DNA of 64,000 nucleotides from contig CAYIFB010000001.1 of assembly GCA_964362665.1 (NCBI GenBank), forward strand, positions 48,308 to 112,307, given 5' to 3'. The DNA is from an uncultured Gammaproteobacteria bacterium. Lineage in GTDB: Bacteria > Patescibacteriota > Microgenomatia > 2-02-FULL-39-11. Position numbers and translations under genes: made by a program. The notes beneath the pieces were generated by a model. The model searched no databases, was not told the DNA's origin, and saw only the letters and a program-made list of their open reading frames with translations. Shown piece after piece: positions 23,568-45,614 of this stretch; within the stretch, counting starts at the first letter, position 1; each line of letters begins with the position of its first letter.

Positions 23568-23573
23568 TGTTAG

Positions 23574-24182: not shown

Positions 24183-25485
24183 TCTTGTTTACCTTTTATA
24201 TCTTATTATAAAGAATCCAGGCAAACAGACAATAAGCTGTCCTGACTGCAACGTTGTTTTTGTCTCATTTGATACTCTGAGAGCCGACCATCTTCATTTT
24301 ATGGGATATTCCAAAAATACCAGTCCGACTCTGGACAAACTTGCAAGTAACGGGTTTATATTTACAAATGCAGTCAGCGCTTCATCCTGGACGCTTCCGG
24401 CAACCATGAGTTGGTTTACCGGAGTGTATCCATCAGTTCACCAAATTTTAAATAAGTTTACTCTGAAAGGCCCTAACGAGCAGGAAATATCAAATCTTAA
24501 AAAATTATCTCCCGGTCTTTTGACCATGGCTGAAATATTTCAAAAAGACGGATATAAAACAGGAGGGTTTACCGGGGGTGCCGGAGTCAATCATGAGTTT
24601 GGATTTGCTGCAGGCTTTGATGAATATATAGATGATCAGGATTTTGCGGGATTTGAGTATTCTTATCCCAAAGCAGTTGAATGGATTAAGAAGAACAGGA
24701 ACGAGAAATTATTTGTTTTTTTGCACGGATATAATATTCATGGACAATATGTTCCGCCGGAAGGATATGATTTTCGTTTTCTCGACTTTACTTATAAAGG
24801 AAAACTTACAGGATCCAAAGAAGAACAGTTAAATTTGAGAGAAGAGGGTTTAGCGCAAGGTAAATTATTTTTGACTCAGGATGACGTGAGGTTTCTTACA
24901 GCACTGTATGATGAAAAGATAGCAAGGGCAGATGAAGAATTTTCCAAGTTTTATCAGGAGTTTAAAAAGTTGGGACTTCTGGAGAAAACAATCTTTGTCA
25001 TCACCTCAGATCATGGTGAAGAACTTTATGAGCACGGTCAGATAGACCATGGCCATAGTCTTTATCAGGAGGTTATCCATGTACCTCTTTTGATTATTAT
25101 TCCGGGAATTAAAGGTGCTTTAATTTCCCAACAAGTGAGGAGTATAGATCTTTTACCTACAATTTTAACCATAATTGGTGCGGGTACAGATCAAAAAATA
25201 TTTTCTCAATTTCAGGGGAAAAATCTTACTGATACGATGAAAGGAGATAATCTTAATCTTCAGGCGTTTTCCGAAACTGATTACCGGTATGCTGTTTTTA
25301 AAAGAGCGATAACATCAGCGGATAGCTGGAAGTATATAACAGACTTGGAAACATCAAATAATGAATTATATTCTCTGAAAAACGATCCCGGAGAAAAAAT
25401 AAATAGAATAGACACGAACAAAATTGAAAAAGATACATTACGCCTTACTTTGGAGGAAATAATCAATTCAAATAAACGTAAATAA
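24130..25485 (+). CDS. Sulfatase-family (alkaline phosphatase superfamily) protein, no CxPxR motif
   Basis: CNVVFVSFDTLRADHLHFMGYSKNTSPTLDKL and ITSDHGEELYEHGQIDHGHSLYQE motifs. Paralog of 21981-23567. Confidence 0.6.
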   Translation: MNRKMNLKFISILLFSFILVYLLYLIIKNPGKQTISCPDCNVVFVSFDTLRADHLHFMGYSKNTSPTLDKLASNGFIFTNAVSASSWTLPATMSWFTGVYPSVHQILNKFTLKGPNEQEISNLKKLSPGLLTMAEIFQKDGYKTGGFTGGAGVNHEFGFAAGFDEYIDDQDFAGFEYSYPKAVEWIKKNRNEKLFVFLHGYNIHGQYVPPEGYDFRFLDFTYKGKLTGSKEEQLNLREEGLAQGKLFLTQDDVRFLTALYDEKIARADEEFSKFYQEFKKLGLLEKTIFVITSDHGEELYEHGQIDHGHSLYQEVIHVPLLIIIPGIKGALISQQVRSIDLLPTILTIIGAGTDQKIFSQFQGKNLTDTMKGDNLNLQAFSETDYRYAVFKRAITSADSWKYITDLETSNNELYSLKNDPGEKINRIDTNKIEKDTLRLTLEEIINSNKRK

Positions 25486-27732: not shown

Positions 27733-29469
27733 ATGTGCGGCATTGTAGGAAAAATATATTTTCATCCTCATACGATTCAAAAATCAAAAGAGAGTGTTCT
27801 TATTCAAAAGTCTCTTGAAAAACTGCACCATCGGGGTCCTGATGATAGGGGATATTATATAGATGAAAATGTTTGGTTGGGATCGACCCGGTTAAAAATA
27901 CTAGATCTTTCCCCTGCCGGACATCAACCTTTTCAAAACGAAGATAAAAGTTTGTCACTCGTATTTAATGGCGAGATTTATAACTGGAAAGAGATAAAAG
28001 TAAAGTTAAGAAAAAGACATAAGTTTATTTCGCACACAGATGCAGAGGTCTTACTGCATTTATATGAAGAGGAAGGAGTAAATTGCCTCAAATACCTTCG
28101 TGGTATGTTTGCCTTCGCCATTTGGGATAAAAAGAGAGGAGAGTTATTTATAGCACGAGACAGAATCGGGAAAAAACCGGTAAAATATTATTACAACGAT
28201 AAATTTTTTGTATTTGCCTCAGAACTGAAAGCATTTATTGATCATCAGGATGTTCCAAAAGAGATAGATTGGGAAGCTATTGATGAATTTCTTATCTGTC
28301 GATATGTTCTATCACCTAAAACCGGGTTTAAGAATGTCTACAAGCTTCCTCCGGGGCATTATATGAGAGTCATGTCTACTGGAGAAGTTGTGATTAAAAA
28401 ATATTGGCAATTAGATTTCAGTCAAAAATTAGCATTATCAGAGCAAGAATGGCAAAAGTTAATATATGATAAGTTATTAGAATCTGTCCGTTTACGATTG
28501 CAAAGCGATGTTCCACTGGGAGTACATTTATCAGGGGGAATTGACTCAAGTTTGATTACAGCTTTGGTAAGTTTGGAGTCAAAGAAACAAGTAACAACCT
28601 TTTCTATAGGATTCGAAGAATCAGAATACAATGAACTTCCTTATGCACAACTTGTGACAGATCGATACAATACAGATCATCATTCCATGATAGTTAGATC
28701 TGATGTAATAAATCTCCTTCCGCAATTGATTTATCAATACGAAGAACCTTTTGCCGATCCTTCGATGCTTCCCACCTGGTATTTGATGAGAGAAAGTAAG
28801 AAGTTTATGACAGTAGCGATAAACGGAGAAGGCGGTGATGAGAACTTTGCCGGGTATCCATGGTATTTGTTTACGAGCTTCAATAATATCATGAAAAGAT
28901 TACCTTTAAAAACACAAATGAGCTATATCTTTAAAAAATTATATTCAACAACAAAAAGAAAAGATTTTGATACCTTGGCAAAATATCTGCTATCAAAAAA
29001 AAATTTTTCAAATCTGGACGAACATCTTCACCATGATATAAGCCATTATTTACCGGATGATCTTCTTGTAAAAACAGATATTTCATCGATGGCACATTCT
29101 CTTGAGGTTCGCTCCCCTTTTCTTGATCAGGAATTTGTAGAGCTTTGTGCAAAAATGCCAGCAAATTTGAAGCTTCGGAAATTTCAAAATAAGTATATAC
29201 TAAGAAAAACAGCAGAAAAGCTTATTCCTAGAAAATGTTTCACGAGAAGAAAGCAAGGATTTTTACCTCCGCTTGATCGATGGTATAGAGGAGAGTTATC
29301 AGGATTTATAGCATCTCAGTTATTAGATAAAAAATTTCTTTCTTATAATATTTTTAAAAAGGAAAGTGTAATAAAACTTTTAACAGATCATCAAAATTGG
29401 TCATCTAATAACGCCTATATATTGTGGACGATATTATGTTTGAAAAATTGGTTAGATGAATGGTTTTAA
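27733..29469 (+). CDS. asnB: Asparagine synthase (glutamine-hydrolysing), AsnB family
   Basis: MCGIVG N-terminal nucleophile (Cys2). SGGIDSS PP-loop. Located in the glycan locus, as is common for AsnB-like amidotransferases. Confidence 0.8.
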   Translation: MCGIVGKIYFHPHTIQKSKESVLIQKSLEKLHHRGPDDRGYYIDENVWLGSTRLKILDLSPAGHQPFQNEDKSLSLVFNGEIYNWKEIKVKLRKRHKFISHTDAEVLLHLYEEEGVNCLKYLRGMFAFAIWDKKRGELFIARDRIGKKPVKYYYNDKFFVFASELKAFIDHQDVPKEIDWEAIDEFLICRYVLSPKTGFKNVYKLPPGHYMRVMSTGEVVIKKYWQLDFSQKLALSEQEWQKLIYDKLLESVRLRLQSDVPLGVHLSGGIDSSLITALVSLESKKQVTTFSIGFEESEYNELPYAQLVTDRYNTDHHSMIVRSDVINLLPQLIYQYEEPFADPSMLPTWYLMRESKKFMTVAINGEGGDENFAGYPWYLFTSFNNIMKRLPLKTQMSYIFKKLYSTTKRKDFDTLAKYLLSKKNFSNLDEHLHHDISHYLPDDLLVKTDISSMAHSLEVRSPFLDQEFVELCAKMPANLKLRKFQNKYILRKTAEKLIPRKCFTRRKQGFLPPLDRWYRGELSGFIASQLLDKKFLSYNIFKKESVIKLLTDHQNWSSNNAYILWTILCLKNWLDEWF

Positions 29470-32048: not shown

Positions 32049-32318
32049 ATGAAGATAGTAAAAAAGGTATTTGAATACGAGTTACCCATAAAAGTCCAGA
32101 AAGAAAAAGACGGTTATATTGCCACTTGTCCGATCTGGAATGCTTGTTATGTTCAAGGAGATACCATTGATGAGGTAACGGCAGAAATTACCACAGTTGC
32201 CCAGGTGTTAATCGATATTTATAAAGAGGAAAATTTAGCTATTCCCCTAAAAAAGGTAAATGAACAATCCGTAAAAGAAAAATTCTCTTTCACCCTACCA
32301 GTGCTCGTATCTGCATGA
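32049..32318 (+). CDS. hicB: HicB-family antitoxin (UPF0150, RNase-H-like fold)
   Basis: EYELPIKVQKEKDGYIATCPIWNACYVQGDTIDEVTAEITTVAQVLIDIY matches HicB. Confidence 0.7.
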   Translation: MKIVKKVFEYELPIKVQKEKDGYIATCPIWNACYVQGDTIDEVTAEITTVAQVLIDIYKEENLAIPLKKVNEQSVKEKFSFTLPVLVSA

Positions 32319-32533
32319 AGATTCCACCTCTTTCCTATAGGGACGTAATACACAAAGCAAGAAAAGCAGGGTTCGTATTCAGAAGAGCAACTGGCGGGAC
32401 TCATGAAATTTGGTGGAATGAGAAGAAAAGGAAAACCGCAGTTATTCCTCACCATCATGAAATCCGTCCCGGAACCATTAGAAGTATTATCAAACAACTG
32501 GGGATAACCGATAAAGAATTCTTAAAATTATGA
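32315..32533 (+). CDS. hicA: HicA-family mRNA interferase toxin
   Basis: GFVFRRATGGTHEIWWNEKKRKTAVIPHHHEIRPGTIRSIIKQLGI matches HicA. ATGA overlap with hicB. Confidence 0.7.
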   Translation: MKIPPLSYRDVIHKARKAGFVFRRATGGTHEIWWNEKKRKTAVIPHHHEIRPGTIRSIIKQLGITDKEFLKL

Positions 32534-32574
32534 GAAATTCATATCCCTTCTTGCTGATCAACCAAATGAGGTAC

Positions 32575-32606
32575 TTTTTCCTCCTCTCCGCGATGATTCT
32601 GGCGTG
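32575..32606 (+). repeat. Second copy (3' portion, 32 nt identical) of the Wzy-like gene 3' end. A diverged upstream part begins at ~32538.
   Basis: ttttcctcctctccgcgatgattctggcgtga is identical to 31979-32010. Confidence 0.85.
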
Positions 32607-32608
32607 AA

Positions 32609-33019
32609 TTGATATGTTTTGAAGTAGTTGATTTAACTTATTTCACATGCCAGAATATACTTATGATAACAAAAAATGATCTAGGACAATTAAGGAAAGG
32701 TTTAGGGAAAGAAATTGGTGATTCGGCAAATAAACTGAAAGAAGAATTAAAAGCGGAAATCAATGCTTCAGCAAAAAGTCTCAGAAAAGAATTCAAAGAG
32801 GATATCGAAACCGCAGTAGTTCAAGTTATTAATGCAGTTATCAAACACACTGCCTCAAAAGAGGAGTTAAAGAGAGTTAAGGGAGAATTGAGTGAAAAGA
32901 TTGATACTATAAAATCAGAATTAAGTTCAGAAATAAAAGCCGATACTCCTACCCCGCAGGAATTTACAAGTCACGAAAAGAGAATAAGTAAATTGGAATC
33001 TGCTGTGTTTCCTTCTTAA
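32609..33019 (+). CDS. Hypothetical coiled-coil protein. The probable start is the internal ATG at ~32663.
   Basis: Lys/Glu-rich heptad-like sequence. No recognisable domain. Bounded by copies 2 and 3 of the Wzy 3'-end repeat. Confidence 0.35.
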   Translation: MICFEVVDLTYFTCQNILMITKNDLGQLRKGLGKEIGDSANKLKEELKAEINASAKSLRKEFKEDIETAVVQVINAVIKHTASKEELKRVKGELSEKIDTIKSELSSEIKADTPTPQEFTSHEKRISKLESAVFPS

Positions 33020-33066
33020 ATCCTTCTTTCACACCCCACAAATGCGCTATCTTTTCCTCCTCTCCA
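33019..33066 (+). repeat. Third copy (5' portion, ~47 nt with 1 indel) of the Wzy-like gene 3' end
   Basis: aatccttctttcacaccccacaaatgcgctatcttttcctcctctcc matches 31948-31995. Confidence 0.85.
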
Positions 33067-33148
33067 CTCTTATCTTAAGCCAGGAATGTACATTACCAGT
33101 ACGAACGTATAGTCATTTACCGGGAGAAAGTGATATACTTGGCTAATT

Positions 33149-33412
33149 ATGCTCAACTGGAATGTTGATGAGAAAAGGTTTATAAAAGAAGACCCGGAGG
33201 GGTATAAACGCTGGAGGATCGAACAACTGATAAATTACGGTCTGGATGGAGAAAAACTGGACAAGGATGAGGTAAAAAAAGCCTGGCCCATGATAAAAGA
33301 GAACATTGATCCGTATAAGCGCAGGCTTATAGAATATATCTTATGGGAAAAACTATACTTACTCCCACTCAACGGAAATTTCTGGAGTGCATCCAGAATT
33401 ACGAAGAGATAA
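33149..33412 (+). CDS. Small partner protein of the nucleotidyltransferase module (putative antitoxin-like). Paralog of 10457-10741.
   Basis: See the alignment under the 10457-10741 feature. It overlaps the downstream gene by 70 nt in a different frame, as in the first copy. Confidence 0.5.
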   Translation: MLNWNVDEKRFIKEDPEGYKRWRIEQLINYGLDGEKLDKDEVKKAWPMIKENIDPYKRRLIEYILWEKLYLLPLNGNFWSASRITKR

Positions 33413-33990
33413 CCCGCTGGTTTTATCTGACCGGTGGAACTGCTCTTTCGGAAGATATTGATCTGTTTTCTACAAGTGAAGTAGATGATAAGACTATTGA
33501 TAAATTTTTGGATGATATTCGTCCACAACTGCAAATTACTTCAATAAAAAAAGACCATATTTCAGGATTGTTCTTATATAAATTAACTTTTTCAAACGGA
33601 GAAACATTGAAAGTTGATTTTAATGAATATGCATTTGAACCAATTGAAAAAAGTACTAAAAATTTCGGGAAATTACAGGTAGACAGTTTCTACGATATAG
33701 CAGTAAATAAAGCCTATACCATATCGGGACGCTTTAAATCTCGTGATTTTATCGATCTCTATTTTATCCTCATTCGAGAGGAATTCTCTTTTGAACAAAT
33801 TCTTTCGCGTGTACCAGATAAATTTGGAGTGCAGATCGATTCAGTATTTTATGCAAGCCAACTTCTTCGGGCAGGTGATTTGCCAAAAGATTATCCCCCT
33901 ATGCTTGTCCCTTTTGAATTTGATGATATGGTGAAGTTTTTTGTGAAAGAAGCAAAACGATTGGGAAAAAAGGCTTTTAAGAACCCTTGA
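33343..33990 (+). CDS. Nucleotidyltransferase, AbiEii/AbiGii-toxin-like. Paralog of 9849-10565.
   Basis: WFYLTGGTALSEDIDLFS nucleotidyltransferase motif. Similar length and architecture to the first copy. Confidence 0.6.
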   Translation: MGKTILTPTQRKFLECIQNYEEITRWFYLTGGTALSEDIDLFSTSEVDDKTIDKFLDDIRPQLQITSIKKDHISGLFLYKLTFSNGETLKVDFNEYAFEPIEKSTKNFGKLQVDSFYDIAVNKAYTISGRFKSRDFIDLYFILIREEFSFEQILSRVPDKFGVQIDSVFYASQLLRAGDLPKDYPPMLVPFEFDDMVKFFVKEAKRLGKKAFKNP

Positions 33991-34014: not shown

Positions 34015-34532
34015 TGAAGTTAGCGACTATGTATCGAACCCTAAAAATTCTATTTGTAATTTTGTTGGTTCTGACGATTACAGAAGCAGGATATTATATT
34101 TACGTATTAAAATATCCTATTAAACCAGCCCAAAATAACCCCTCATTAGCTCCAAGTATATCTTCCGATCAAAAAATTGACAGGAGTGCATATCTTTTTG
34201 ACCAGATTACAGCCTCTGATCCTTATCAGTTCGTAAAACACTTCGGTATGAATGATAATCAGAATTTATATTTAATTCTTGAGCAAAAAGGAATTGCACA
34301 GATAGATAAATCCGATGACGGTAAAGACATATATCTCACCATACAAAACGATCAGCATAAAAAAATCGTAAGCATTAATATAGTCAATTCCCTGAAAATT
34401 ACGAAGATAGTAAAGGGTGAAAAAACTCCGATTAGCAAGGACCAAATTAAAACCGGAGACAATATTCTTTATACCCTGAAAGGTGATTTAGTTGACCAGA
34501 AAAAAAGCAGTGGAGAAATTACAATCTTATGA
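33987..34532 (+). CDS. Cassette 1: membrane-anchored/exported protein. The probable start is the ATG at 34029 (MYRTLKILF…).
   Basis: N-terminal TM/signal anchor LKILFVILLVLTITEAGYYIYVL, then PIKPAQNNPSLAPSISSDQKI. The first ~50 aa are near-identical, at DNA level too, to the 36317 paralog. The C-terminal domains differ. Confidence 0.5.
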   Translation: MISDLIIFILKLATMYRTLKILFVILLVLTITEAGYYIYVLKYPIKPAQNNPSLAPSISSDQKIDRSAYLFDQITASDPYQFVKHFGMNDNQNLYLILEQKGIAQIDKSDDGKDIYLTIQNDQHKKIVSINIVNSLKITKIVKGEKTPISKDQIKTGDNILYTLKGDLVDQKKSSGEITIL

Positions 34533-34731: not shown

Positions 34732-35547
34732 CTAAGCACTGTTGTTTATCTTAAGTAATTCGCATATCTTTTCTTCATTTTTGGCAAAATAAAGAAGATA
34801 AAACCTCGGATTAGACTTGACGAAATTCATAATCGTCTTGATCTGACTTCTCATATCTTTTTCAAGACTCCATGTTTGGGCTGAAATTAGAGTGATAATT
34901 TTATTATTATTTTTCAACTGTATCAACCGGCAATCTTTTGCTTTACGCAGAAAATAAATGCTTTCAATAGGATATCGTTTAAAAGTTTTTTTGATCCATT
35001 TGTACTTTTCCACCACCGGTGATTGATAAAAATAGAAACTATTATTTTCCTTAATGATAATACCGCTTTCATCAACAAGGGGGATCGACTGTCTTCTCGT
35101 CAGATTTAAGATGGTCGATTTGCCGGCTCCGGAAGGGCCGACAAACACATGTGCTTTTCCGTCAATTTCTACAGCTGAACAGTGAAGAAAGAAACCATTA
35201 TTCTTTAAAAGAGCATTCTGAACGACGCGAAGTAAAAGCGTGATGAAGTGATTGATACTGATATGAAGATAGGTGAAAACCTTATTATTCTTCACATGAT
35301 AAAAAGCGAGAGTGAAATAAGGCAGTTTTAGCTTTTTTTGAAACACGTAAGGGGCAGAAGGTAAAAAGTTTATTTCTGTGAGGCATTTTTTGCCTCTTTG
35401 ACCTTTTACAATAAAACCCGCATAAATATTGTTAATTTTTTCCCGGATATTATTTACCGGATTTTTACCCTGCGTCGGGGCAAACTTCAGTTTGATGAGA
35501 AAACCTGCAATGTAAAAATACAAAACATTTTTTTTCATATACTTCAA
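34732..35547 (-). CDS. HPr-kinase-C-terminal-domain-like P-loop kinase (HprK-related / lasso-peptide-kinase-like)
   Basis: FFLHCSAVEIDGKAHVFVGPSGAGKSTILNL resembles the HprK active-site P-loop (G-x-SG-x-GKS). Convergent with, and 2 nt from, the peptide gene. Confidence 0.6.
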   Translation of the reverse strand: MKYMKKNVLYFYIAGFLIKLKFAPTQGKNPVNNIREKINNIYAGFIVKGQRGKKCLTEINFLPSAPYVFQKKLKLPYFTLAFYHVKNNKVFTYLHISINHFITLLLRVVQNALLKNNGFFLHCSAVEIDGKAHVFVGPSGAGKSTILNLTRRQSIPLVDESGIIIKENNSFYFYQSPVVEKYKWIKKTFKRYPIESIYFLRKAKDCRLIQLKNNNKIITLISAQTWSLEKDMRSQIKTIMNFVKSNPRFYLLYFAKNEEKICELLKINNSA

Positions 35548-35745
35548 GATTGAGAAGATATAAAAAATACAGTATTATCCTCTTGATATATGAATAAAAT
35601 CATCAGGATGATTAGATTTAAGCGTAAATTCTGTATTAAAGCAACTGGTAACAGCATGCTGCCTCTTCTTTTCTCGGGAGACGTATTATACCTAAAAAAA
35701 TTCACTTAAAGACGTCTGAAAAAACCTATATTCCCCTTTTTCTTT

Positions 35746-36228
35746 TTATATAATATTTAAGTCATCACCCAGCGGATGGTATTCGTCTTTGAGTAAATTT
35801 AAAATAGTGGTTTTTCCTGCACCTGAATTACCCAAGAAAACATAAGCTTTATGATTGATACATACTGAAGATGCATGCAGAAGAAATCCTCCTTCTTTTG
35901 CCAAAATGTCTTCGATAGCGTCGCGAAAAAGCAGGTTAAACTCCCCCAGATTCACGTGATAGTAAATTTCGCGATTATTGGAATCTATTTTTCTGCATGC
36001 CTTAAGGTAAATAAATTCATTTTCCCGGTAAAAGATACTGGGTTCACGAAAATCCACAAAGTGGATGATATGTAGAGGATTTTTTTTAGATATCGAAAAA
36101 TTCTTCAAATTAAAGATGACGTTTTCGATAAATTTCTCCCGATGCAGGATAAAAATGCTTTCATGAAACCTGAATTCCAGCACCATCCCTGCAATTTTGA
36201 AAAAATATGAAGAAGTCCCCTTGTTCAT
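35746..36228 (-). pseudogene. Truncated HprK-like kinase paralog (P-loop present, C-terminal ~110 aa missing or frameshifted)
   Basis: GFLLHASSVCINHKAYVFLGNSGAGKTTILNL, then a stop after …PLGDDLNII. A shifted frame just downstream translates …GEYRFFQTS…, which resembles the …YYGFQSP… block of the full-length paralogs. Confidence 0.5.
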
Positions 36229-36298: not shown

Positions 36299-36316
36299 TA
36301 ATAATAGATAGACATT

Positions 36317-36877
36317 ATGTATAAACTATTGAAAATATTATTCGTCTTATTATTGTTTCTGACGATTACAGAAGCAGGATATTATATTTACGTATTAAAA
36401 TATCCTATTAAACCAGCCCAAAATAACCCCTCATTAGCTCCAAGTATATCTTCCGATCAAAAAATTGAGCAGTTGAGAAGTAGCTCATCTATAGTTCCTC
36501 AAGTTACTCAAACAAACTTGCCAACCATACAGCCTCTCATTTCTTCTGATTCGATCACGTATCTTCAGAATATGAAGTTTGTGAAGAATAAAACAATTGT
36601 TGTCACCATCGAAGAGTCAGGATATGTTGATACTATTCAGCTTCAACCAAAGGGGAGTGCAACAGAATTAAAATTAGTTGATGAAAATGGAACCATAATA
36701 TCTGCAATTTCTAGGGATCTTGAATTTTGGAATAAAAATCTATTTAAAAAGATAGCAAACAGTGATGTTCCTTTCAGCATAACTGATCTTAAAAAAGGAG
36801 ACTTTATCATGCATTCATATCAAATGAACATAACAGACAATACAGATAATCATAAGTATGTAGTTATATCAAAATAA
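36317..36877 (+). CDS. Cassette 2: membrane-anchored/exported protein, paralog of 34029-34532
   Basis: MYKLLKILFVLLLFLTITEAGYYIYVLKYPIKPAQNNPSLAPSISSDQKI… The stretch 36360-36471 is ~100% identical in DNA to 34069-34180, then diverges. Confidence 0.5.
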   Translation: MYKLLKILFVLLLFLTITEAGYYIYVLKYPIKPAQNNPSLAPSISSDQKIEQLRSSSSIVPQVTQTNLPTIQPLISSDSITYLQNMKFVKNKTIVVTIEESGYVDTIQLQPKGSATELKLVDENGTIISAISRDLEFWNKNLFKKIANSDVPFSITDLKKGDFIMHSYQMNITDNTDNHKYVVISK

Positions 36878-36878
36878 T

Positions 36879-37085
36879 ATGAAGAATAAACAAATATATA
36901 AAAAGCCAGGTATCAAGGTTAAAAAAATTCATTTTAATGTTCTCTTTACCAATTTTAACGATAATTCTTTACTAGCACTAGTAGGACCGGGTCAACTATG
37001 TTGTGGAAATCCTGAACTCTATTGTCCTAGTTCCTGTAGTGGTGGTTGTAGTGTTTGTCCACAAGATGGGTACTGTGCATGCTAG
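36879..37085 (+). CDS. Cassette 2: Cys-rich small peptide, paralog of 34529-34729
   Basis: 68 aa. Leader KKPGIKVKKIHFNVLFTNF. Core GQLCCGNPELYCPSSCSGGCSVCPQDGYCAC has 8 Cys. Its start is 2 nt after the upstream stop. Confidence 0.5.
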   Translation: MKNKQIYKKPGIKVKKIHFNVLFTNFNDNSLLALVGPGQLCCGNPELYCPSSCSGGCSVCPQDGYCAC

Positions 37086-37900
37086 TTTTTAACCCTCTTT
37101 CCCATTAGAGTCACGAGCTTGTTTCCCTTATTAAATGAGAGAGAATAAAAATGATTGTGTCTTTGAATAAATGCAAATGCATTTTTTGTCGGCGGTTTCG
37201 TATGAGGGTCAAAAGTGAGAAGCTGTGCGGATAGAAGTGTTATTATTCTGGTAAGATCTTTGATCTTTGTTGTCCGGTAAAATTTTGCTTTGCGTAAAAA
37301 AAATATTCTTCCGACGAGATAATGCTGTTGAGTTTTTTTTATCCAGTCATTTTTTTCCCTGACTGGAGACTGGAATCCATAATATTTTTCTCCTATTTTT
37401 CTTACAATGAGGATGTCATCTGAAAAAGCCTGGAAACGCGGGTGTAAAAGTTTCATAGCCGTAGATTTTCCGCCCTCTGATTTAGCACAAAAGAGGAAAA
37501 GACTATTGTTTACGATTGATGCTGAAGTATGCAGAAGGAATCCGTCAGATCTTGAAGCAAGTGTTTGAAGTGCCGTAAGCAATATTAAATTAAACTGGTT
37601 TATGCTTATATGTTGGAATGAAAGAATTTTATATCTGTGTAATTTAAAAAAATGAAGCAGTCCTAAATTAGCATCTTTTGTTTTTCTCGTGAATATCGAT
37701 GGAAAATGTTGGAATAGATGAATGGTAAAATCTATTTTCGAAAGTTTCTTATTAGTTAGAAAAGCTGAATAGTGTTTTTTGATGTCATTCGATAGAGATT
37801 GATTTATCCAAGAGTCATGAATTTCTCTTTCTTGAGTAGGATTTAGAATAATCCTTATATTAAAGCCTCCGGTATAAAGGTCTATCCTCTGTGTTTTCAT
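37082..37900 (-). CDS. HPr-kinase-like P-loop kinase, paralog of 34732-35547
   Basis: GFLLHTSASIVNNSLFLFCAKSEGGKSTAMKLL. C-terminal block …YYGFQSPVREKNDWIKKT aligns with …FYFYQSPVVEKYKWIKKT. Convergent with the peptide gene, which overlaps its 3' end (ATGA-style). Confidence 0.6.
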   Translation of the reverse strand: MKTQRIDLYTGGFNIRIILNPTQEREIHDSWINQSLSNDIKKHYSAFLTNKKLSKIDFTIHLFQHFPSIFTRKTKDANLGLLHFFKLHRYKILSFQHISINQFNLILLTALQTLASRSDGFLLHTSASIVNNSLFLFCAKSEGGKSTAMKLLHPRFQAFSDDILIVRKIGEKYYGFQSPVREKNDWIKKTQQHYLVGRIFFLRKAKFYRTTKIKDLTRIITLLSAQLLTFDPHTKPPTKNAFAFIQRHNHFYSLSFNKGNKLVTLMGKRVKN

Positions 37901-39254
37901 GGATCGTATTATACCTCATACAACCCATTTTCTGATTCTGTTTCAGTGGTATACTTTCTCTGTTGTGACAGCGAACCATCTTCTTATTTTAAATAAGCTT
38001 CAGAAGAAACGGGCTTTCTGGCTTAAATGCGAGGGCATAAGCATGCTTCCGCTGCTTCGTCCCGGCGATATATTATTCTTTAAGAAAATCAAGTTTCATC
38101 AGACGAAGATAAATGAGATTATACTGGTAAAAAAGAGTAATAAAGAGATAGTCCATAGAGTTATTTATAAAAAAAACAATTATCTGGTTACTAAAGGTGA
38201 TCACAATCCTTTGTCAGACGGGAGGACAAATCCAAACGACGTTTTCGCGAAGGTAATCGCAGTAAAGAGAAGTAATAATAAATTCGATTTAGAAAGTTTA
38301 TATCTTTTCCAGTCAACTCTTTACTTTCAGGAAATAGTGAAGGTTAATAAAGCTTTCAGGAAAGAAAAAATTGCTTTTGTCTTTCTGAAAGGCCTTCCTG
38401 TACATCTATTTTATGAAAAAAAACATCCCCGTCGAATATATGCTGACAGCGATATTCTTATTGATCAGACTGATTACGAGAAAGTTGAAAAGGTTTTTAA
38501 GAGGAATGGATTTAAAAAAGTTGATGCTTCCTATTCTAACCTCCATAAACTATTAAAGGATAAACCCACGGAAGTAAGTTTTGTGAAAAAAGTAAATAAT
38601 TTTCCAGTAGTCTTTGACATCCATTTTGAGCCGGTATTTCTAATGAATCAGCTTGGGAAGCTTGATGCTTTGTATCCTGAGAAATTCATGAGGCAGTTGA
38701 CTAGTGATTTCTTACAGACGAAACTAGCAATAAAAGTACAAGGAGAACAATTCTTTATACTTGATATTTCCTACTTAATACTTTACTTAGCTTTGCATTT
38801 TTTCCATCATAACTATCGGGGAATATTCCGGTTACATTTTTTAGATCAGGTGATAAGATTTCGCGCCAGAGAATTAGATTTGGATAAATTGATATCGGAT
38901 ATTAATAAATATCAGGTGCAAAACTTTGTTTATCCGGTATTTTGGTTTTTACAGAAATACTACTCGACTCCGGGAGCCAGTCTGGTATTAAAAAGTATAA
39001 ATATCAAGTCTAAAGAGCTAAAATATATAAAAGAAAATATCTTAAATATCAATATTTTTGATGATGAGTCGAGGGTTCAGGCGGGAATTGCCAGATTTAA
39101 AAATATTTTTCAGCTCTCCCCTTCCCCGTTTTGGAAGAAACTGACACTTATCTTTAATCTGCAGATAATTTACAGCGTTTTCTGGGTTGGGTATTTGAAG
39201 ATTAAAAATTATCACAATTCCCGGAATTTTAATCCGTTTAATTCCGGACAATAA
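37899..39254 (+). CDS. Fusion protein: N-terminal SipW/Sec11-type (S26B) signal-peptidase-like domain plus C-terminal NTP_transf_5-like 'uncharacterised nucleotidyltransferase' domain
   Basis: Peptidase boxes CEGISMLPLLRPGDILFF (Ser), EIVHRVIY (His, ER-type) and TKGDHNPLSDGR. C-terminal domain IAFVFLKGLPVHLFYEKKHPRRIYADSDILIDQTDYEKVEKVFKRNGFKK resembles PF14907-type nucleotidyltransferases seen near lasso/HprK-related loci. The tail reads through a hairpin repeat. Confidence 0.5.
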   Translation: MDRIIPHTTHFLILFQWYTFSVVTANHLLILNKLQKKRAFWLKCEGISMLPLLRPGDILFFKKIKFHQTKINEIILVKKSNKEIVHRVIYKKNNYLVTKGDHNPLSDGRTNPNDVFAKVIAVKRSNNKFDLESLYLFQSTLYFQEIVKVNKAFRKEKIAFVFLKGLPVHLFYEKKHPRRIYADSDILIDQTDYEKVEKVFKRNGFKKVDASYSNLHKLLKDKPTEVSFVKKVNNFPVVFDIHFEPVFLMNQLGKLDALYPEKFMRQLTSDFLQTKLAIKVQGEQFFILDISYLILYLALHFFHHNYRGIFRLHFLDQVIRFRARELDLDKLISDINKYQVQNFVYPVFWFLQKYYSTPGASLVLKSINIKSKELKYIKENILNINIFDDESRVQAGIARFKNIFQLSPSPFWKKLTLIFNLQIIYSVFWVGYLKIKNYHNSRNFNPFNSGQ

Positions 39255-39298
39255 TATATAAAATTCCCGGAATTTAATCCGTTTAATTCCGGGAATTA
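39216..39298. terminator. Two tandem copies of a ~33-bp palindromic element (ccggaatt-N-aattccgg) between convergent genes. Candidate bidirectional terminator or regulatory hairpins.
   Basis: aattcccggaattttaatccgtttaattccgga (39216-39248) and aattcccggaatttaatccgtttaattccgggaatt (39263-39298). Both convergent ORFs end in …NSRN encoded by the palindrome. Confidence 0.4.
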
Positions 39299-39573
39299 AC
39301 TATAATTTTTTTCGCGAAAAGTTCTTTTTCCAGACCCAAGTAATCCTTTTGTGCTCGAATATTGGAGATTTTATATTTTTTTATCATCAGTTCGATTATC
39401 TCCTCCTTACTTAAACCCTTCTTGATTTTGTCAAAGATAAAAGAGGCTGTTTGGTTGAAGGTATAGAGCTGAGATTTCTCACCGTCAAAAATCGTAGTTT
39501 TATTTCCCAGTTTCTGGACGATAAAACCTTTGTTTATTTTATATTTCACCGTTGCGGATTTGGATGTTTTCAT
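39283..39573 (-). CDS. PqqD-family protein (RiPP recognition element / peptide chaperone-like)
   Basis: KGFIVQKLGNKTTIFDGEKSQLYTFNQTASFIFDKIKKGLSKEEIIELMIKKYKISNIRAQKDYLGLEKELFAKKII fits the PqqD pattern (hxxhxxgxxxhlxxxtgxhxxLNxtaxxIWxLldG…eihxxlxxxYdh…dvxxfhxxLxxxxhI). Confidence 0.6.
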   Translation of the reverse strand: MKTSKSATVKYKINKGFIVQKLGNKTTIFDGEKSQLYTFNQTASFIFDKIKKGLSKEEIIELMIKKYKISNIRAQKDYLGLEKELFAKKIIVNSRN

Positions 39574-40474: not shown

Positions 40475-42208
40475 ATGCTTTTTAATTTAGGTTTATTGTC
40501 CTTATTTTTTCTTCCTGTAATCGAATCATTCAGACGGGAGGCGGGATTATTTTTTCTCTGTCTGGGTGCCTTACTGCTGGCTTTAAATCCTCAACAATCC
40601 AAAAAAACTCAATTGGATTTTTCAGATCTTTTGTGGTTTATCTTATTGGTTGTTTTCAGCCTCTCATTATTTCATACCGCGTCCTACATCAGGAGTTTCA
40701 GCGAGTTTCTGCGCTATCTGTCATATTTTTTGATTCTTGTGTCAATTAAAAATCATCATGATCACACTAGTCTTTTAAAAAGTTTTTATTTACCCATGAT
40801 TGTAGTAAATTCCATAATTCTATCTCTTCTTAGCTGGTGGTATTTGATTCCGGTAGTTCACTTCTATACTCCTCCACCCTTAAATCTATATTTTGCCAAT
40901 TTCGGCCACAACAGACTTTCCGCCATACTTATTTTTGCCCTACCGATTACAGCAATATTTTCTACGCTAAGTTATAAGAAGAAATATCTTTATAAACTTT
41001 TAACAGTGTTTCTGTTTATCTCCCTGATTTTTACAGTTGCCCGCGGGGCATTTCTAGAATTGTCTTTTTCGTCACTCATCGTGCTTTTGTTATATTTTAA
41101 AAGAAATAGTGTAGATGCCCAAAATCCGGAGAAAAGACAATTGATGTCTTATGTGAGCTTTTTCAGCCTGATCACCATAATATTTCTGGTATTTAATTTC
41201 ATCTATTCAAATTTTTTCAATCCCTCAAACTTTCCTTTAAATATCCGCAATACTTATAAACCGGTTATGGGTGAATTAAGGCTTGAGTATATTCGGCAGG
41301 CGGTATCTGAATTTGCCAGACACCCGCTTCGGGGTACTGGACTTGATACTTTTGTATATGTCTCAAGAATTAATCAACTTCGTGGCAGTCAAAGTTCAGA
41401 TTATGTTCATAACCAATTTCTGGAAATTTTTACGGAAACAGGAATTTTTGGCGGTATTATATTTGCGGTATTAATGTGTTATTTATTGGTCAAATCATAT
41501 TCTCATAACAAGAAGTTACAGGGTCCAGATAAAATTTATCATTTGGCTGTAATGATTGGGCTTTTGGCGTCATACTTTTCTTCTCTCATTGATTACGATT
41601 GGCAGTACATCTCTATTTTTTTCATCTTATTCCTCGGTCTTATTCTGACATCCGATCATGAAGATCAGCCAAAATACGATATGCACCAAAATGGTTGGAG
41701 GATTTTTATATTTTTATATTTTCTGGCTTTTCTGGTCAAGTTTATTTTACTAAAAAACGTTCCTGAATATTCTAAGAAAATTGATCAGCTGATACAAAAA
41801 AACGAATTGGTTGCGGCAGAAAATTTGGCACTGCGATTTCATAAACTGGATCAAGGCGGCCAACCCGCGATTGTACGGCTTATTGAAATCTCACAAAAAT
41901 CAGGAAACGCAGAGAAGAACCATTATTGGAATGAACAGCTTATAAAAACCAGTCCTTATGATCAGGATTATACCCGCAGAGAAGATTTCCGCCTGTATCT
42001 CACAGACATGCAAAAAAAAGTTGTCCTTGGCAATGCGAATGATGCCATGAGTATTTTCAAGACATTAAAATCAAAATATCCGGATCTTTATCAGCAGATC
42101 AATAGTGACGCTTATTTAAATAAAATCATTCTGGCTCTAAATAATAATAATAATTCTGAGGCTTTGGAAATTTTCCAATCCTTAATTATTTCAGGTATGA
42201 AAATATAG
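40475..42208 (+). CDS. O-antigen-ligase-family membrane protein with C-terminal TPR-like soluble domain
   Basis: Multi-TM with a Wzy_C-like loop (…RHPLRGTGLDTFVYVS…HNQFLEIFTETGIFGGIIFAVLM). C-terminal ~170 aa helical repeats. Confidence 0.5.
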   Translation: MLFNLGLLSLFFLPVIESFRREAGLFFLCLGALLLALNPQQSKKTQLDFSDLLWFILLVVFSLSLFHTASYIRSFSEFLRYLSYFLILVSIKNHHDHTSLLKSFYLPMIVVNSIILSLLSWWYLIPVVHFYTPPPLNLYFANFGHNRLSAILIFALPITAIFSTLSYKKKYLYKLLTVFLFISLIFTVARGAFLELSFSSLIVLLLYFKRNSVDAQNPEKRQLMSYVSFFSLITIIFLVFNFIYSNFFNPSNFPLNIRNTYKPVMGELRLEYIRQAVSEFARHPLRGTGLDTFVYVSRINQLRGSQSSDYVHNQFLEIFTETGIFGGIIFAVLMCYLLVKSYSHNKKLQGPDKIYHLAVMIGLLASYFSSLIDYDWQYISIFFILFLGLILTSDHEDQPKYDMHQNGWRIFIFLYFLAFLVKFILLKNVPEYSKKIDQLIQKNELVAAENLALRFHKLDQGGQPAIVRLIEISQKSGNAEKNHYWNEQLIKTSPYDQDYTRREDFRLYLTDMQKKVVLGNANDAMSIFKTLKSKYPDLYQQINSDAYLNKIILALNNNNNSEALEIFQSLIISGMKI

Positions 42209-42251: not shown

Positions 42252-45200
42252 ATGACGCATAAAATAATTTCTGCGTTGGTTTTTGTATCGGTAATATTCC
42301 TCCTATTCTTTATCTCTATAAAAACATCGCCATTAAGCGAAGTATCTGCTGCTACCTACTGTCCAGCCTTGGTATCATATTATGTTGGTCCGACGGCAGT
42401 AGCACCGGCAGCCAGGATATCAGTCACCTGTAATTATGGAGTGCAATTGTCGTGTATTGGAGCTAAAAGCGCGCCAACTGACTATACAAATTGCAATTGG
42501 CTTGGTTTTGGGGGAAATAATAATGCGCGGTTTTCTTGTAAAGTTCCGGCTACAGGAGGATTATATACGAATAAATGCACACTATCCAGTGGTGGCGGTG
42601 ATGATTGCTGTGTCCAAAGTGATCCAGCTGGTTCTTATGAAGTTTGCTCGGAAACTGCCCCTTCAGGACTGAATGTAACTAACTTAACCAATAATTCGGC
42701 TACTCTCAACTGGACTCCGGGGACAGCTATTGCGGGATCGGTACAGAAGTTACGGGTGGGGGCAAGTGCAAATGAGGTAAATACCGGGTGTAATGGCGGA
42801 TACGATCCTCCACTTACTCCTGCGCCGACCTGTGTTATAAAATCAGATTTACCCTTGAATACTTCATCACAGAATACCGGAGCTATTTTGAATTCTAATC
42901 AACTATATTACTGGAGAGTAGTAACTTTTCAGAGCGCGGCATGTTACGTTGACAACAGACCTCCAGATCAAAGCTTTACGACGCTTTTAAATCCGACAAA
43001 TACTCCCATTCTAATACCTACGAAAACACCTACGCCGACGGTAACTCCTACTTCTACGCCTACTAATACTCCTACTTCTACTCCTACTAATACTCCTACT
43101 TCTACTCCAACCGCAACTCCTACCGTAACCCTTACCCCAACTCCTATTTTTACCTGCGGATTGACAGCCTGTCCTGACTTGACTTGTTCCAATCCAATAC
43201 CGGCAAATTGTACTATCTGTACTGATTTTCTTTGTACTCAGCCTACTATAGCGCCGACAAATACTCCTACCGTTACTCCAACAGTTACTAATACACCCAC
43301 CTACACTCCTACTCCTAGCAATACACCTACATCTACACCCACATTAACACCAACCATTACACCTACAAATACGCCGACAGTGACTCCTACGATTACCCTT
43401 ACACCGACCGTAACCCTTACCCCAACTCCTGTAGGAGGAAATTACTGTGGAGCAGGTTGTCCGGATTTGGACTGTGCCAATCCGACTCCAGCTGATGGAT
43501 GTTCCACCTGTACTGATTTTGTTTGTAGCTTGCAGCCAACTTCGACTCCTACTTTAACACCGACATTAACACCGACTTTTACCCCTTCTCCTACTCCGAC
43601 GAGTACACCTACTGATACTCCTACTCCGACTCTAACGGAGACACCTACTCCAACACCCACAGTTACCTTGACTCCGACACCCACTTTTTATAATGTTTAT
43701 GGCTGGATTTATACGGAAACAAATAATACTGTAATTAGAAATGAAGAACAAAACGAAGGATTAATTCCTAATTATACGGTGGACCTGACGGGAGATCAGA
43801 CTCTTTCCACAACTTCTCAAGGCTCTCCTATTGCCGGATTTTTAGCAAATTATATCCTAACGCCTCTTTATAATGGCATATTTCAGCTGGAAATGGTTAT
43901 CACTCCGACAGGCTATACACTTTATAAAGGACCTCCGGGAGCCACTCCTTCTCCTTATACCAACCCTAAAGTCGTTATTTTAGCCGGAGGAGACGCTATT
44001 GGTGATTTTCCGTTTATTACAATTACTCCTTACATAAGTCCAACAGCTACTCCGACTGTCACGCCGTCTTCTACCCCGCCTCCAATTTCGCCAACGCCTA
44101 CTTCGATCTGGACTCCTACACCGTCTGTCGGACCAGGAACACCAACACCTACAAACTACGTTTGTCAGACACTGCCGACACCCATTCTGAACGCGCCGGC
44201 AGAAAATCTATGCACCAATATCAAACCGACTTTCTCAGCATATGTCCTGGATCCGAACAACGATAATGTCTGGGGTCATTTCTATAGTACTGATACTATA
44301 TCGTTTGATAGGATCGGTTCAGTGGTAAATCCAAGCGGAGGTAATAGTACCTGGATACCTGACGGCTCTGTTCTTAACAGCTCGGGAGCTTATATGTGGA
44401 CGGCTTATACGGAAACATCTTCCTGTCCGCGCTCATTTGATGCTCCAGCTAATCGTTTAAACATGGATTATACGGCTCCTCCGAAACCTCAATCGCCAAG
44501 CTGTAGCCTGACTAGTCAAAATTATATTACCGGCCAATGTTCTTTTCATTGTAGTTGGAGTGCTGATCCGGAACCGACTCCGCAATCCTGCAGTGATACC
44601 AATGATTATCACCCTGTTTTCAGGACTGATCCGGGACCAGGAGCTTGGGATCCGGGTTGGATTGGTAACAGCTTATCTACTGATGTGACAACAGAGGTGG
44701 CCCAGGAATTGTATGCCAAAGTTACGGCAAGGGACGGTCTTGGTAACACTTCAGAAACTTCAGATGAGTCGGTAAGTGCGGTTTGCCCTGAAATTATTTA
44801 TTCCGTCTCTCCAACTCCCGGTGGTCCGACAGCAACTCCTACTGGAGGGGTTATTCCAACAGTCACTCTTACACCCACAGCCACTCCAACTCCAACCCCG
44901 GGTATTTGGACCCAGGTTTTCGGCGGAGATATTTATGAGCCGTCTCTTCTGCAAAGAAATGTACCTTCAGGCAAATACTATTTGAATAATATAGATGTTG
45001 TCCCAACTCCGGTGAGCGCCGGAATACTTTGGTCGACTTCAGGAGCTGGGGATTTCGGAAATGGCTTCTCATCTCCTACAAACTGGCAGGTAGGATCAAC
45101 TCTTTCCAATACTTTTAATTTTTCTTATTATTGGGAAGCACTCAAGAATAATCCCGCTGCAGTAAACGTGAATAGTACGGTGATTCTAAATCCTACCGCC

Positions 45201-45614
45201 GCAATTAATCTGTATAACGTCGGTGGTTCAGTTACCTTAGAGGCTAATAGTTTAATCTTACCGGCATCAAAAGTGGCCATCTTTTTGATTACCGGCACTT
45301 TGGAGATTAAAAATAATTTTACTATAGCCAGCGACGAATCAGTCGTTTTTGTCGTCAGCGGCAATATTGAGGTTGACCCTAGTGTGACCAGAATAGACGG
45401 GCTTTTTATGGACAGCGGATCATTTACAGTTGCAGCCGGATCCGATCAGCTTGTGGTCAACGGTATGGTTTATACTACAAATATGAGTTTAAACAGAACT
45501 CTTCGAAGTTTTACCACACCTGCCTATAAATTTATCTATCAGCCGAAATATGTGATTACATTATTGCCATACCTGGGAAGATCACAGGTTAATTGGCAGG
45601 AGGCGGCGCCATGA
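42252..45614 (+). CDS. Large secreted surface protein: FN3-like region, long Pro/Thr (TPT) linkers, a twice-repeated 4-Cys module (C-x2-CPDL-x-C-x-NP-x-PA-x1-2-C-x2-CTDF-x-C) and a C-terminal beta-rich domain. Candidate pilus-associated adhesin.
   Basis: Signal peptide. [15 protein letters not shown] repeats. Modules [32 protein letters not shown] and [32 protein letters not shown]. Immediately followed by a PilX-like gene and pilMNO. Confidence 0.5.
43006..43690 (+). repeat. Low-complexity (ACN-CCN)n tracts encoding TPT linkers, interrupted by the two Cys modules (~43147-43245 and ~43441-43535)
   Basis: Read directly (actcctacttctacgcctactaatactcct…). The antisense ORFs listed in the track for this region are artefacts of the repeat. 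Confidence 0.7.

Follow-up and report, generated by a model that had tools for sequence, protein, structure and literature searches.

Why should a protease of the signal peptidase type be joined in one polypeptide to a domain resembling nucleotidyltransferases? The question is raised by a gene in a 64,000-nucleotide stretch of contig CAYIFB010000001.1 (assembly GCA_964362665.1, positions 48,308–112,307 of the forward strand; hereafter the window, with positions counted from its first letter), which GTDB places in the Patescibacteriota (Microgenomatia). A sequence-only reading of this DNA had pointed out the fusion of a peptidase of the endoplasmic reticulum (ER)/SipW type to a domain of the NTP_transf_5 family. 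It had called the fusion unusual and undescribed, and had proposed that leader cleavage is coupled to nucleotidylation of neighbouring peptides or exported proteins. We find that the fusion is real and conserved, and that it is probably the maturation enzyme of a pathway for peptides that are made on ribosomes and modified after translation (RiPPs) similar to that of the linear polyphosphorylated peptides (LPPs) of Bacillota, its substrates being the small peptides encoded alongside it.

The fusion protein and its two domains

The gene lies in a single stop-free open reading frame (ORF) on the forward strand (37899–39254), which encodes 451 residues when counted from its first ATG. This ATG overlaps by 2 nt the start codon of a divergent gene (37082–37900), and the 22 extra residues have no counterpart in homologues, in which only about 20–25 residues precede the catalytic serine. 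GTG 37965 is the likely start codon, because the N-termini of the homologues and a PGAP model (P0284) agree on it: the model, that of the near-identical MEK7072372.1, uses exactly this start and gives a protein of 429 residues. Public gene models of the fusion nevertheless conflict (403, 429 or 451 residues; P0001, P0284). The deposited 403-residue model begins at Met49, directly after the catalytic serine, which is thereby lost, and models shortened in the same way are found among the homologues (P0004, P0005 and P0025). As the database names are either ‘signal peptidase I’ (JGI) or ‘nucleotidyltransferase family protein’, the mis-annotation is systematic: models starting at a late methionine drop the active-site residue and the names miss half of the protein. 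From here on, the numbers of conserved residues (S26, D161 and so on) count from GTG 37965.

For the N-terminal part, Pfam reports Peptidase_S24 at residues 35–96 (24.2 bits, cut-off 23.3), and the best NCBIfam match is TIGR02228, the archaeal/ER-type signal peptidase I, with 50.2 bits (E = 2.5e-13), below its cut-off of 51.85. With a profile of 62 homologues, which span 44–72% identity, the best matching sequences of solved structures are human SEC11C (E = 3e-5) and SEC11A (E = 8e-5), whose GxSMxP, HRV and KGDNNxxxD boxes line up with those of the fusion. His64, Arg65, Gly78, Asp79 and Asp85 are invariant in the 62-homologue alignment. Ser26 is at least 90% conserved; as judged from the first 40 matches inspected, it is missing where the gene model begins only at the methionine behind it. 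Foldseek searches of the PDB with the N-terminal part of the model retrieve LexA, UmuD, SipA (PDB entry 4n31), SpsB and SEC11A, and in PHROGs the domain is matched only by repressor-type S24 families. By its sequence matches this half is an ER/SipW-type S26 protease with a predicted Ser26/His64/Asp85 active site. It has no N-terminal membrane anchor, the residues before Ser26 being modelled as a short amphipathic helix (residues 3–14).

The C-terminal part matches NTP_transf_5 (PF14907) at residues 138–355 with 79.6 bits (cut-off 31.2), over positions 52–248 of the 249 in the profile. In the same alignment, Lys142, Asp161, Asp163, Asp218, His220, Glu222, His278, His281, His282 and Asn283 are invariant in this half, and Foldseek brings up LnuA (4fo1), TM1012 (2ewr) and ANT(2'')-Ia (probability 1.0, target TM-scores of 0.60–0.67). 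AlphaFold2, run with the homologue alignment as input, gives one compact model (pLDDT 92.6, pTM 0.90) composed of helix 3–14, a β-barrel (17–107), a linker helix (109–133) with the conserved motif LxQSTLYFxEIVKIK, an α/β core (138–266), a helical domain (268–397) and a terminal helix (399–420). This last helix is hydrophobic and may be a membrane-association element, its estimated hydropathy being borderline for a transmembrane segment. The standalone proteins LppN, PbaN and BsfN score 68–160 bits on PF14907 (LppN, 91.6 bits) and start at positions 2–17 of the profile, compared with position 52 for the fusion; the peptidase and the linker helix thus seem to take the place of the N-terminal segment of the standalone form. 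Errors are possible in the sequences of these three proteins, which were machine-read from an alignment in a PDF file, but each of them has a good PF14907 score.

Pfam, NCBIfam, the SEC11 alignment and AlphaFold2 thus agree on the architecture proposed by the sequence-only reading, and all of the motifs that it quoted are present (GISMLP, IVHRV, KGDHN and FLKGLP...RRIYADSDILI). The domain scan returns two domains and not one unrelated fold, and the predicted structure joins them by a continuous helix (109–133), with no need to invoke a frameshift. The suggestion that exported proteins are the substrates fares less well and appears unlikely, as the protein has neither an N-terminal anchor nor a signal sequence. 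For this reason, and because the fold of the partner domain is presumably that of an enzyme using a cytoplasmic nucleotide-activated donor, we infer that the protease works in the cytoplasm and is not a Sec signal peptidase.

The fusion is widespread. A search of 5.8 billion proteins yields 489 matches, the best 120 of which are all about 400–450 residues long with about 89% query coverage, and when every GTDB species is represented by a single genome, 75 distinct loci are found. With the peptidase domain alone as the query, 127 representatives (at 50% identity) are found at E ≤ 1e-10, most of them again of 400–450 residues, and the fusion amounts to roughly 100 clusters at 50% identity. What the sequence-only reading regarded as unusual is therefore the standard form in these loci, although we have found no description of the fusion itself in the searchable literature. 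The informative records come from Gottesman-, Roizman-, Levy-, Beckwith- and Woesebacteria or are labelled ‘Microgenomates/Patescibacteria group’, with the single exception of a 3-kb contig binned as Omnitrophota; many other records are titled ‘uncultured Gammaproteobacteria’, which we regard, as an assumption only, as an uninformative placeholder. None of 72,556 plasmids gave a tblastn match to the fusion.

No clear pair of split peptidase and NTP_transf_5 genes was found within the loci of the candidate phyla radiation (CPR). Shorter ORFs that match part of the fusion in L071, L072 and L076 look like copies that are interrupted or truncated at contig ends. About 34 extra members of the single-linkage cluster, of 190–215 residues, were considered as split copies and rejected: they are sugar transferases of the Bac_transf family, that is, polyprenyl-phosphate sugar-phosphate transferases, which most likely entered the cluster via one fused ORF. 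P0227 is a triple fusion of the peptidase (in a model that starts at the methionine after the catalytic serine), NTP_transf_5 and Bac_transf. Outside the CPR, the peptidase domain has standalone relatives of 144–170 residues. One of them follows a PqqD gene and a gene for a 290-residue protein with a weak Hpr_kinase_C match (L080), another is accompanied by ScmC and PqqD (L083), and a third precedes PqqD (L082). Standalone relatives of 154–168 residues adjoin genes of the gingipain-like Peptidase_C25 family in L079 (1–1504) and L082 (1–6600, the locus with PqqD), a different and undescribed context for this type of leader peptidase.

Precursor peptides, partner proteins and the relation to known pathways

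The sequence-only reading also linked the fusion to neighbouring small peptides, and this link holds: the gene sits among genes for precursors with a YxKP-type leader (Table 1). A profile built from the two peptides of the window and 15 look-alikes yields 43 unique small ORFs in 39 loci. Their leaders share the consensus Y-x-K-P-x-[ILV]-x-x-K-K-[IVL]-K-[LIV]-N-F-F, with the tyrosine in 42 and the proline in all 43, followed by a spacer of variable length that ends in two hydrophobic residues and an alanine (LLA, YLA, VYA, FFA and others). Past this alanine the sequences are hypervariable: Cys-rich, Gly/Ser-rich, composed of GGYY repeats or only 3–8 residues long. The cores predicted in the window are Cys-rich, with seven and six cysteines. 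Two tandem precursors in L040 (137–925) combine the same YxxP-type leader with cores of about 10–15 GQGGYY repeats.

The gene neighbourhood was compared by calling and clustering the ORFs of 78 related loci and of window positions 27001–50000, with the YcaO, nitroreductase and Bac_transf assignments confirmed by Pfam. Among the 33 well-flanked loci, in which the fusion has 6 kb or more of sequence to either side, a PqqD-family protein is found near it in 29 (57 of the 75 loci within 8 kb), a P-loop protein of the ScmC family in 28 and a recognizable precursor in 20. A DUF4330-like protein occurs in 23 of the 33 (38/75), a Wzy_C protein in 18 (31/75) and a Bac_transf gene of about 200 codons in 14 (29/75 within 8 kb, including L019, L051 and L059). 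YcaO together with a nitroreductase-type dehydrogenase is present in 13 (17/75) and an ATP-binding cassette (ABC) exporter in only four (8/75 within 8 kb).

The two most frequent partners are both present in the window. Its PqqD protein gives weak matches to the models of lasso-peptide PqqD chaperones, with TfuB1 and PbaB1 as the best solved structures. The two intact ScmC-like copies, a and b, share 31% identity with each other; copy b weakly matches ScmC (TIGR04249) and copy a weakly matches ScmC, HprK_rel_A and hpr-ser models. Homologues of copy a carry PF27840, and its AlphaFold2 model (pLDDT 86) leads Foldseek to PEP carboxykinase and HPr kinase/phosphatase. A third copy, recognized by three-frame translation and BLASTP against the intact ones, is preserved as far as its Walker A motif and degenerate beyond the in-frame stop that follows; a third precursor module has probably left it behind.

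Such a set of genes has a published counterpart. LPPs were described in Bacillota in May 2026 (Popov et al., Nat Commun; PMC13381572), together with the SipW-like leader peptidase class in RiPP biosynthesis, and are said to be restricted to that phylum. Their core genes encode the TIGR02228-type peptidase LppS, the PqqD protein LppB, the HprK-like kinase LppK, the NTP_transf_5 protein LppN and an MsbA-like pump. The clusters lie within capsule loci, and the precursors have a leader of the form YxxPxVLxHQxIxFET\|xxS and variable C-termini (PMC13381572). LppS removes the leader only with LppB, requires S29, H68 and D93, and works poorly on precursor that has not been phosphorylated; the core residue that LppK polyphosphorylates is Ser3. 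An AlphaFold3 model and mutagenesis indicate that the N-terminal helix of LppS contacts LppB and that the leader residue at −3 lies in a hydrophobic cleft near F42 (PMC13381572).

Using the LPP sequences from the supplement of that paper, LppS aligns with the fusion family over 115 columns (hhalign 97.7%, E = 2.3e-12; hmmsearch 56.8 bits), with S29, H68 and D93 opposite Ser26, His64 and Asp85 and with F42 opposite a conserved aromatic residue. LppK aligns with the ScmC-like family, copy b included (hhalign 98.2%, E = 3e-14). The likeness extends further: in both cases there is a TIGR02228-type Ser/His/Asp peptidase without a described anchor, a discrete PqqD, an HprK-fold kinase or kinase-like protein, an NTP_transf_5 protein, a leader motif with Tyr and Pro (YxxPx[V/I/L]), hypervariable C-termini and a setting among polysaccharide genes. 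The peptidase and the transferase form one polypeptide here, whereas in Bacillota each has a gene of its own, the pump gene lying between the two, and they co-occur in 106 of the 126 peptidase neighbourhoods (PMC13381572, Supplementary Data 2). The check that the sequence-only reading had suggested, for the two domains as separate genes, thus gives a positive answer, and the fusion is a Rosetta-stone variant of LppS and LppN. Moreover, the host is a member of the Patescibacteria and not of the Bacillota, the cores are often Cys-rich, the exporter is usually absent, and some loci have YcaO or radical S-adenosylmethionine (radical-SAM) partners.

Other known systems were compared. The lasso-peptide clusters of paeninodin and pseudomycoidin likewise combine a B1-type PqqD, a kinase and NTP_transf_5 pair and a YxxP leader motif; here, however, the protease for the leader is a serine and not a cysteine enzyme, and neither a lasso cyclase nor a transglutaminase-type B2 protease was found among the neighbours scanned. 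An Asn synthase is encoded at 27733–29469, with strong, intact GATase_6/7 domains in Pfam, and we take it from these domains to be an ordinary amidotransferase and not a lasso cyclase. The lasso-peptide reading was accordingly rejected for want of a cyclase and a B2 protease. With the SynChlorMet (SCM) cassette the locus shares kinase-like neighbours of the ScmC family (TIGR04249, PF27840), and L003 adds PqqD and radical-SAM genes; the ScmC equivalog score is nevertheless only 35 bits here against a cut-off of 125, and the radical-SAM/SPASM proteins ScmE and ScmF that accompany ScmC have no equivalent among the scanned ORFs of the window, which show no radical-SAM domain, several ORFs being unscanned.

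Both halves of the fusion are known partners in a published pathway, and the locus therefore does not define a new category; the coupling that the sequence-only reading believed undescribed is new as a fusion only, the partnership of the two enzymes having been published (PMC13381572). What is new is the fusion, the phylum, the end of the leader, the types of core, the frequent absence of a pump, the hybrids with YcaO or radical-SAM enzymes and, from P0227 and the Bac_transf neighbours, a second hint of a link to glycan synthesis. A conserved natural fusion is independent evolutionary evidence that the two enzymes share one substrate and work on it at one stage, and it extends the LPP-like system from Bacillota to the CPR. 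Biochemists also gain from it one polypeptide that should fold well, as judged from the AlphaFold2 confidence, whereas LppS is reported as poorly soluble (PMC13381572).

Proposed pathway and competing explanations

We propose that the PqqD protein binds the Y-x-K-P-x-[ILV] strand of the leader and presents it to the N-terminal helix of the peptidase. The HprK-fold kinase-like proteins, one per precursor in the window, would modify the core, probably by phosphorylation. The Ser26/His64/Asp85 domain would then dock on the PqqD–leader complex via its N-terminal helix and remove the leader. The cut would most likely fall after the hydrophobic-hydrophobic-Ala junction (..LLA, ..YLA), since a small residue at −1 and a hydrophobic one at −3 mirror Thr-1 and Phe-3 of LPPs. 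With its DxD metal site, the fused NTP_transf_5 domain may attach one more group to this peptide, so that tailoring and cleavage would be held on a single cytoplasmic scaffold. By analogy with PsmN, this group could be a sugar or sugar-phosphate on the phosphorylated residue: PsmN, an NTP_transf_5-type protein of the lasso peptide pseudomycoidin, is required for the addition of one or two hexoses to a phosphoserine, and its DxD double mutant is inactive (PMC6993621). The nucleotidylation favoured by the sequence-only reading is not the best guess, given that PsmN is the only characterized relative and that LppN had no detectable activity (PMC13381572). Leader cleavage is well supported by the analogy with LppS; we infer the dependence on a recognition protein, the position of the cut, the phosphorylation and the chemistry of the transferase.

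Several observations weigh against this LPP-like assignment. Two proteins of the pathway have no direct match to their LPP counterparts: the PqqD of the window gives no BLASTP match with LppB, and the fused transferase no significant profile match with LppN, PbaN or BsfN, with which it has only the Pfam family in common. When one family representative from related loci served as the tblastn query, the 64-kb window showed no ABC/MsbA-type exporter. The leader motif opens with YxKPx[ILV], but continues with KK[IV]K[LIV]NFF and a longer spacer, is about 15–25 residues longer and ends in Ala and not in Phe-Glu-Thr; the cut may instead fall directly after ..NFF, at a distance from the proline equivalent to that of the LPP cut. 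Position 3 of the core shows no conserved serine and some cores lack an early hydroxyl residue, so that fixed-site phosphorylation is not evident. Deletion of lppN had no detectable effect (PMC13381572). Finally, with YcaO and a nitroreductase in 17 of the 75 loci and three radical-SAM genes in another, the class-defining modification may differ between loci.

These last loci invite an explanation that we consider rather unlikely, namely that PqqD and the peptidase form a generic module for leader recognition and removal, while YcaO azoles, radical-SAM crosslinks or disulfides define the products, which would not be LPPs. YcaO and a nitroreductase are encoded in L008, L017, L019, L025, L029, L031, L044, L046, L053–L055, L057, L067, L069, L070, L074 and L077; in L003 (5943–13877) three radical-SAM genes that flank the fusion take their place; and a DsbA-like gene adjoins the module in L001 and L002. 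The cores, often rich in Cys, Ser, Thr or Gly, are also what such chemistry would lead one to expect. Yet most loci, including the window, keep the kinase-like protein although they have neither YcaO nor radical-SAM enzymes (in the window, tblastn finds no YcaO and no Bac_transf match anywhere in the 64 kb). In addition, the transferase is always fused, and the kinase-like family is homologous to LppK, which has been verified experimentally. Each precursor of the window has its own kinase-like paralogue, which suggests that the kinase reads the core. The YcaO and radical-SAM loci are hybrid peptide pathways on the same leader and recognition system, in which these enzymes may supply the main modification (17 of the 75 loci).

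A second explanation concerns the transferase domain, which might be a non-catalytic scaffold or substrate-binding module that holds the core or the kinase during cleavage. The silent lppN deletion fits this idea (PMC13381572), as do the 51 positions missing from the start of the PF14907 profile and the pTM of 0.90, suggestive of a rigid two-domain body. We nonetheless hold it to be unlikely: Lys142-Gly143, Asp161-x-Asp163 and Asp218 are invariant or nearly so in the 62 sequences despite their divergence, the equivalent DxD is essential in PsmN (PMC6993621), and the fold resembles that of active small-molecule nucleotidyltransferases.

It is very improbable that the fusion does housekeeping work as a SipW/Sec11-type signal peptidase on Sec-exported proteins, such as nearby pilus or surface proteins, its second domain being no more than an accessory. 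Its catalytic Ser-His-Asp boxes and β-barrel fold are those of the S26B enzymes, signal peptidase I models and SEC11A/C lead its named matches, in agreement with the JGI name, and genes for type IV pili and the envelope surround the locus; the Foldseek match SipA (4n31) is moreover a homologue that acts in pilus assembly. On the other hand, the 20–25 residues before the serine form an amphipathic helix and no anchor, and the partner of nucleotidyltransferase fold presumably needs a cytoplasmic donor, which together place the protease in the cytoplasm and count against a Sec role. Its tightest neighbours are PqqD, the kinase-like protein and leader-bearing peptides, not secretion genes, and the nearest characterized relative, LppS, is a RiPP leader peptidase. 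Genes of the PilM type are adjacent in only about five of the 78 loci; a role in pilus processing was rejected because pilus genes adjoin the fusion only in a few closely related loci. Lastly, an assembly, frameshift or gene-calling artefact joining two genes has a negligible probability, as nothing but the inconsistent gene models speaks for it, whereas the ORF is free of stops, the architecture recurs in 75 loci from independent assemblies and the junction is a conserved, confidently modelled helix.

If the LPP-like assignment is right, it provides evidence that CPR bacteria have conserved natural products of peptide type, although those of the Microgenomates type are usually thought to be poor in secondary metabolism. 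A broader proposal, possible but on the doubtful side, is that these bacteria own a widespread LPP-like system in which one protein combines leader removal and phosphate-directed tailoring, and that the resulting phosphoglycosylated or phosphate-linked, often Cys-rich peptides feed the biology of surface glycans or pili. The hints come from the Wzy_C, DUF4330-like, Bac_transf and glycosyltransferase neighbours, from the triple fusion P0227 and from the capsule loci of LPPs; the link between such peptides and surface-polysaccharide loci thus recurs. The Bac_transf neighbours and P0227 make a functional link of the transferase domain with sugar-phosphate chemistry possible. Were the proposal true, it would give a first handle on the role of LppN/PsmN-type transferases and on the step to which they are coupled.

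Gene order and further features of the window

The cluster of the window (Table 1) consists of two modules, each made of a membrane protein, a precursor and a ScmC-like protein, with the relic between them, followed by the fusion, PqqD, the DUF4330-like protein and Wzy_C. Around the cluster, the window is rich in envelope and pilus genes, with a prepilin peptidase, pseudopilin-sized ORFs, PilM/PilO and several glycosyltransferases.

Table 1. Positions of the cluster genes and of the fusion domains in the window
Feature	Position	Strand	Remarks
181-residue protein with N-terminal membrane helix	33987..34532	+	stop overlaps start of precursor 1 by 4 nt
Precursor 1, 66 residues	34529..34729	+	leader with ..YCKPKINTKKINFLVMF...GYLA; predicted core QVCDCGAPCYGNVIGRPCYCLNGTGGCSS
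HprK/PEPCK-fold P-loop protein, ScmC family, LppK-like, copy a	34732..35547	-	convergent with precursor 1
Third ScmC/LppK-like copy	35544..36228	-	cut by in-frame stop after Walker A region
186-residue paralogue of the membrane protein	36317..36877	+	directly upstream of precursor 2; 39% identity to 181-residue copy
Precursor 2, 68 residues	36879..37085	+	leader with ..IYKKPGIKVKKIHFNVLF...SLLA; predicted core LVGPGQLCCGNPELYCPSSCSGGCSVCPQDGYCAC
HprK/PEPCK-fold P-loop protein, ScmC family, LppK-like, copy b	37082..37900	-	divergent from fusion, convergent with precursor 2
Fusion gene, SpI-like leader peptidase and NTP_transf_5	37965..39254	+	429 residues from likely start GTG 37965
Peptidase domain, residues 1–107	37965..38285	+	N-terminal helix (3–14) and S24/S26 β-barrel
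Predicted catalytic codon Ser26	38040..38042	+	
Predicted catalytic codon His64	38154..38156	+	
Predicted catalytic codon Asp85	38217..38219	+	
Long linker helix, residues 109–133	38289..38363	+	bridges both domains; AlphaFold2, block pLDDT 91–98
NTP_transf_5 domain, residues 134–397	38364..39155	+	Pol-β-type core and helical domain
Transferase motif LKG (K142-G143)			
Transferase motif D161-x-D163	38445..38453	+	
Transferase motif D218-x-H220-x-E222			
Transferase motif H278..H281-H282-N283			
C-terminal hydrophobic helix, residues 399–420	39159..39224	+	AlphaFold2
PqqD-family RiPP recognition element (RRE)	39283..39573	-	PF05402, 34.2 bits; convergent with fusion
DUF4330-like protein, 275 residues	39588..40415	+	weak DUF4330 match
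Wzy_C (O-antigen-ligase-like) membrane protein	40475..42208	+	PF04932, 67 bits

Neither Pfam nor PHROGs has a match for the membrane-protein family, which is encoded at most 8 kb from the fusion in 25 of the 75 loci and directly upstream of a precursor in the window, L001 and L041. The 5′ ends of both of its genes in the window are covered by a 163-nt direct repeat (34018–34180 and 36306–36468) with 88% identity, whereas the remainder of the two proteins has only 39% identity, which suggests gene conversion or a strong constraint on the N-terminal membrane segment.

Where the fusion gene and the convergent PqqD gene end, a tandem repeat of 45 nt and an imperfect palindrome of 33 nt (39205–39314, containing AAATTCCCGGAATTT) extend over the stop codon of the former and the 3′ end of the latter. 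The region looks like a bidirectional terminator; the last 15 or so codons of the fusion lie within it, and residues 426–429 are of low confidence in the AlphaFold2 model.

Between a Wzy_C gene and the peptide cluster (32049–33990) lie two small ORFs (32049–32318 and 32315–32533), which resemble a HicB/HicA toxin–antitoxin pair by the appearance of their sequences only, and an AbiEii-like nucleotidyltransferase gene (33343–33990; Pfam, 25.4 bits). AbiEii-like genes are found near the fusion in seven loci. Downstream of the cluster, a forward-strand gene (42252–45614) encodes a secreted-looking protein of 1120 residues, in which long linkers rich in Pro and Thr occur together with Cys-rich modules and a C-terminal domain of weak ice-binding type. 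It is followed by PilX-like and PilM/PilO genes, and its homologues occupy the same relative position in L001, L002, L004, L012 and L049. Upstream, among glycosyltransferase genes, three adjacent genes (20009–25485) encode sulfatases/phosphodiesterases of the alkaline-phosphatase superfamily. In 10 of the 75 loci, the fusion has a gene of this family no more than 8 kb away, and the family's members are candidates for phosphate-linked surface chemistry.

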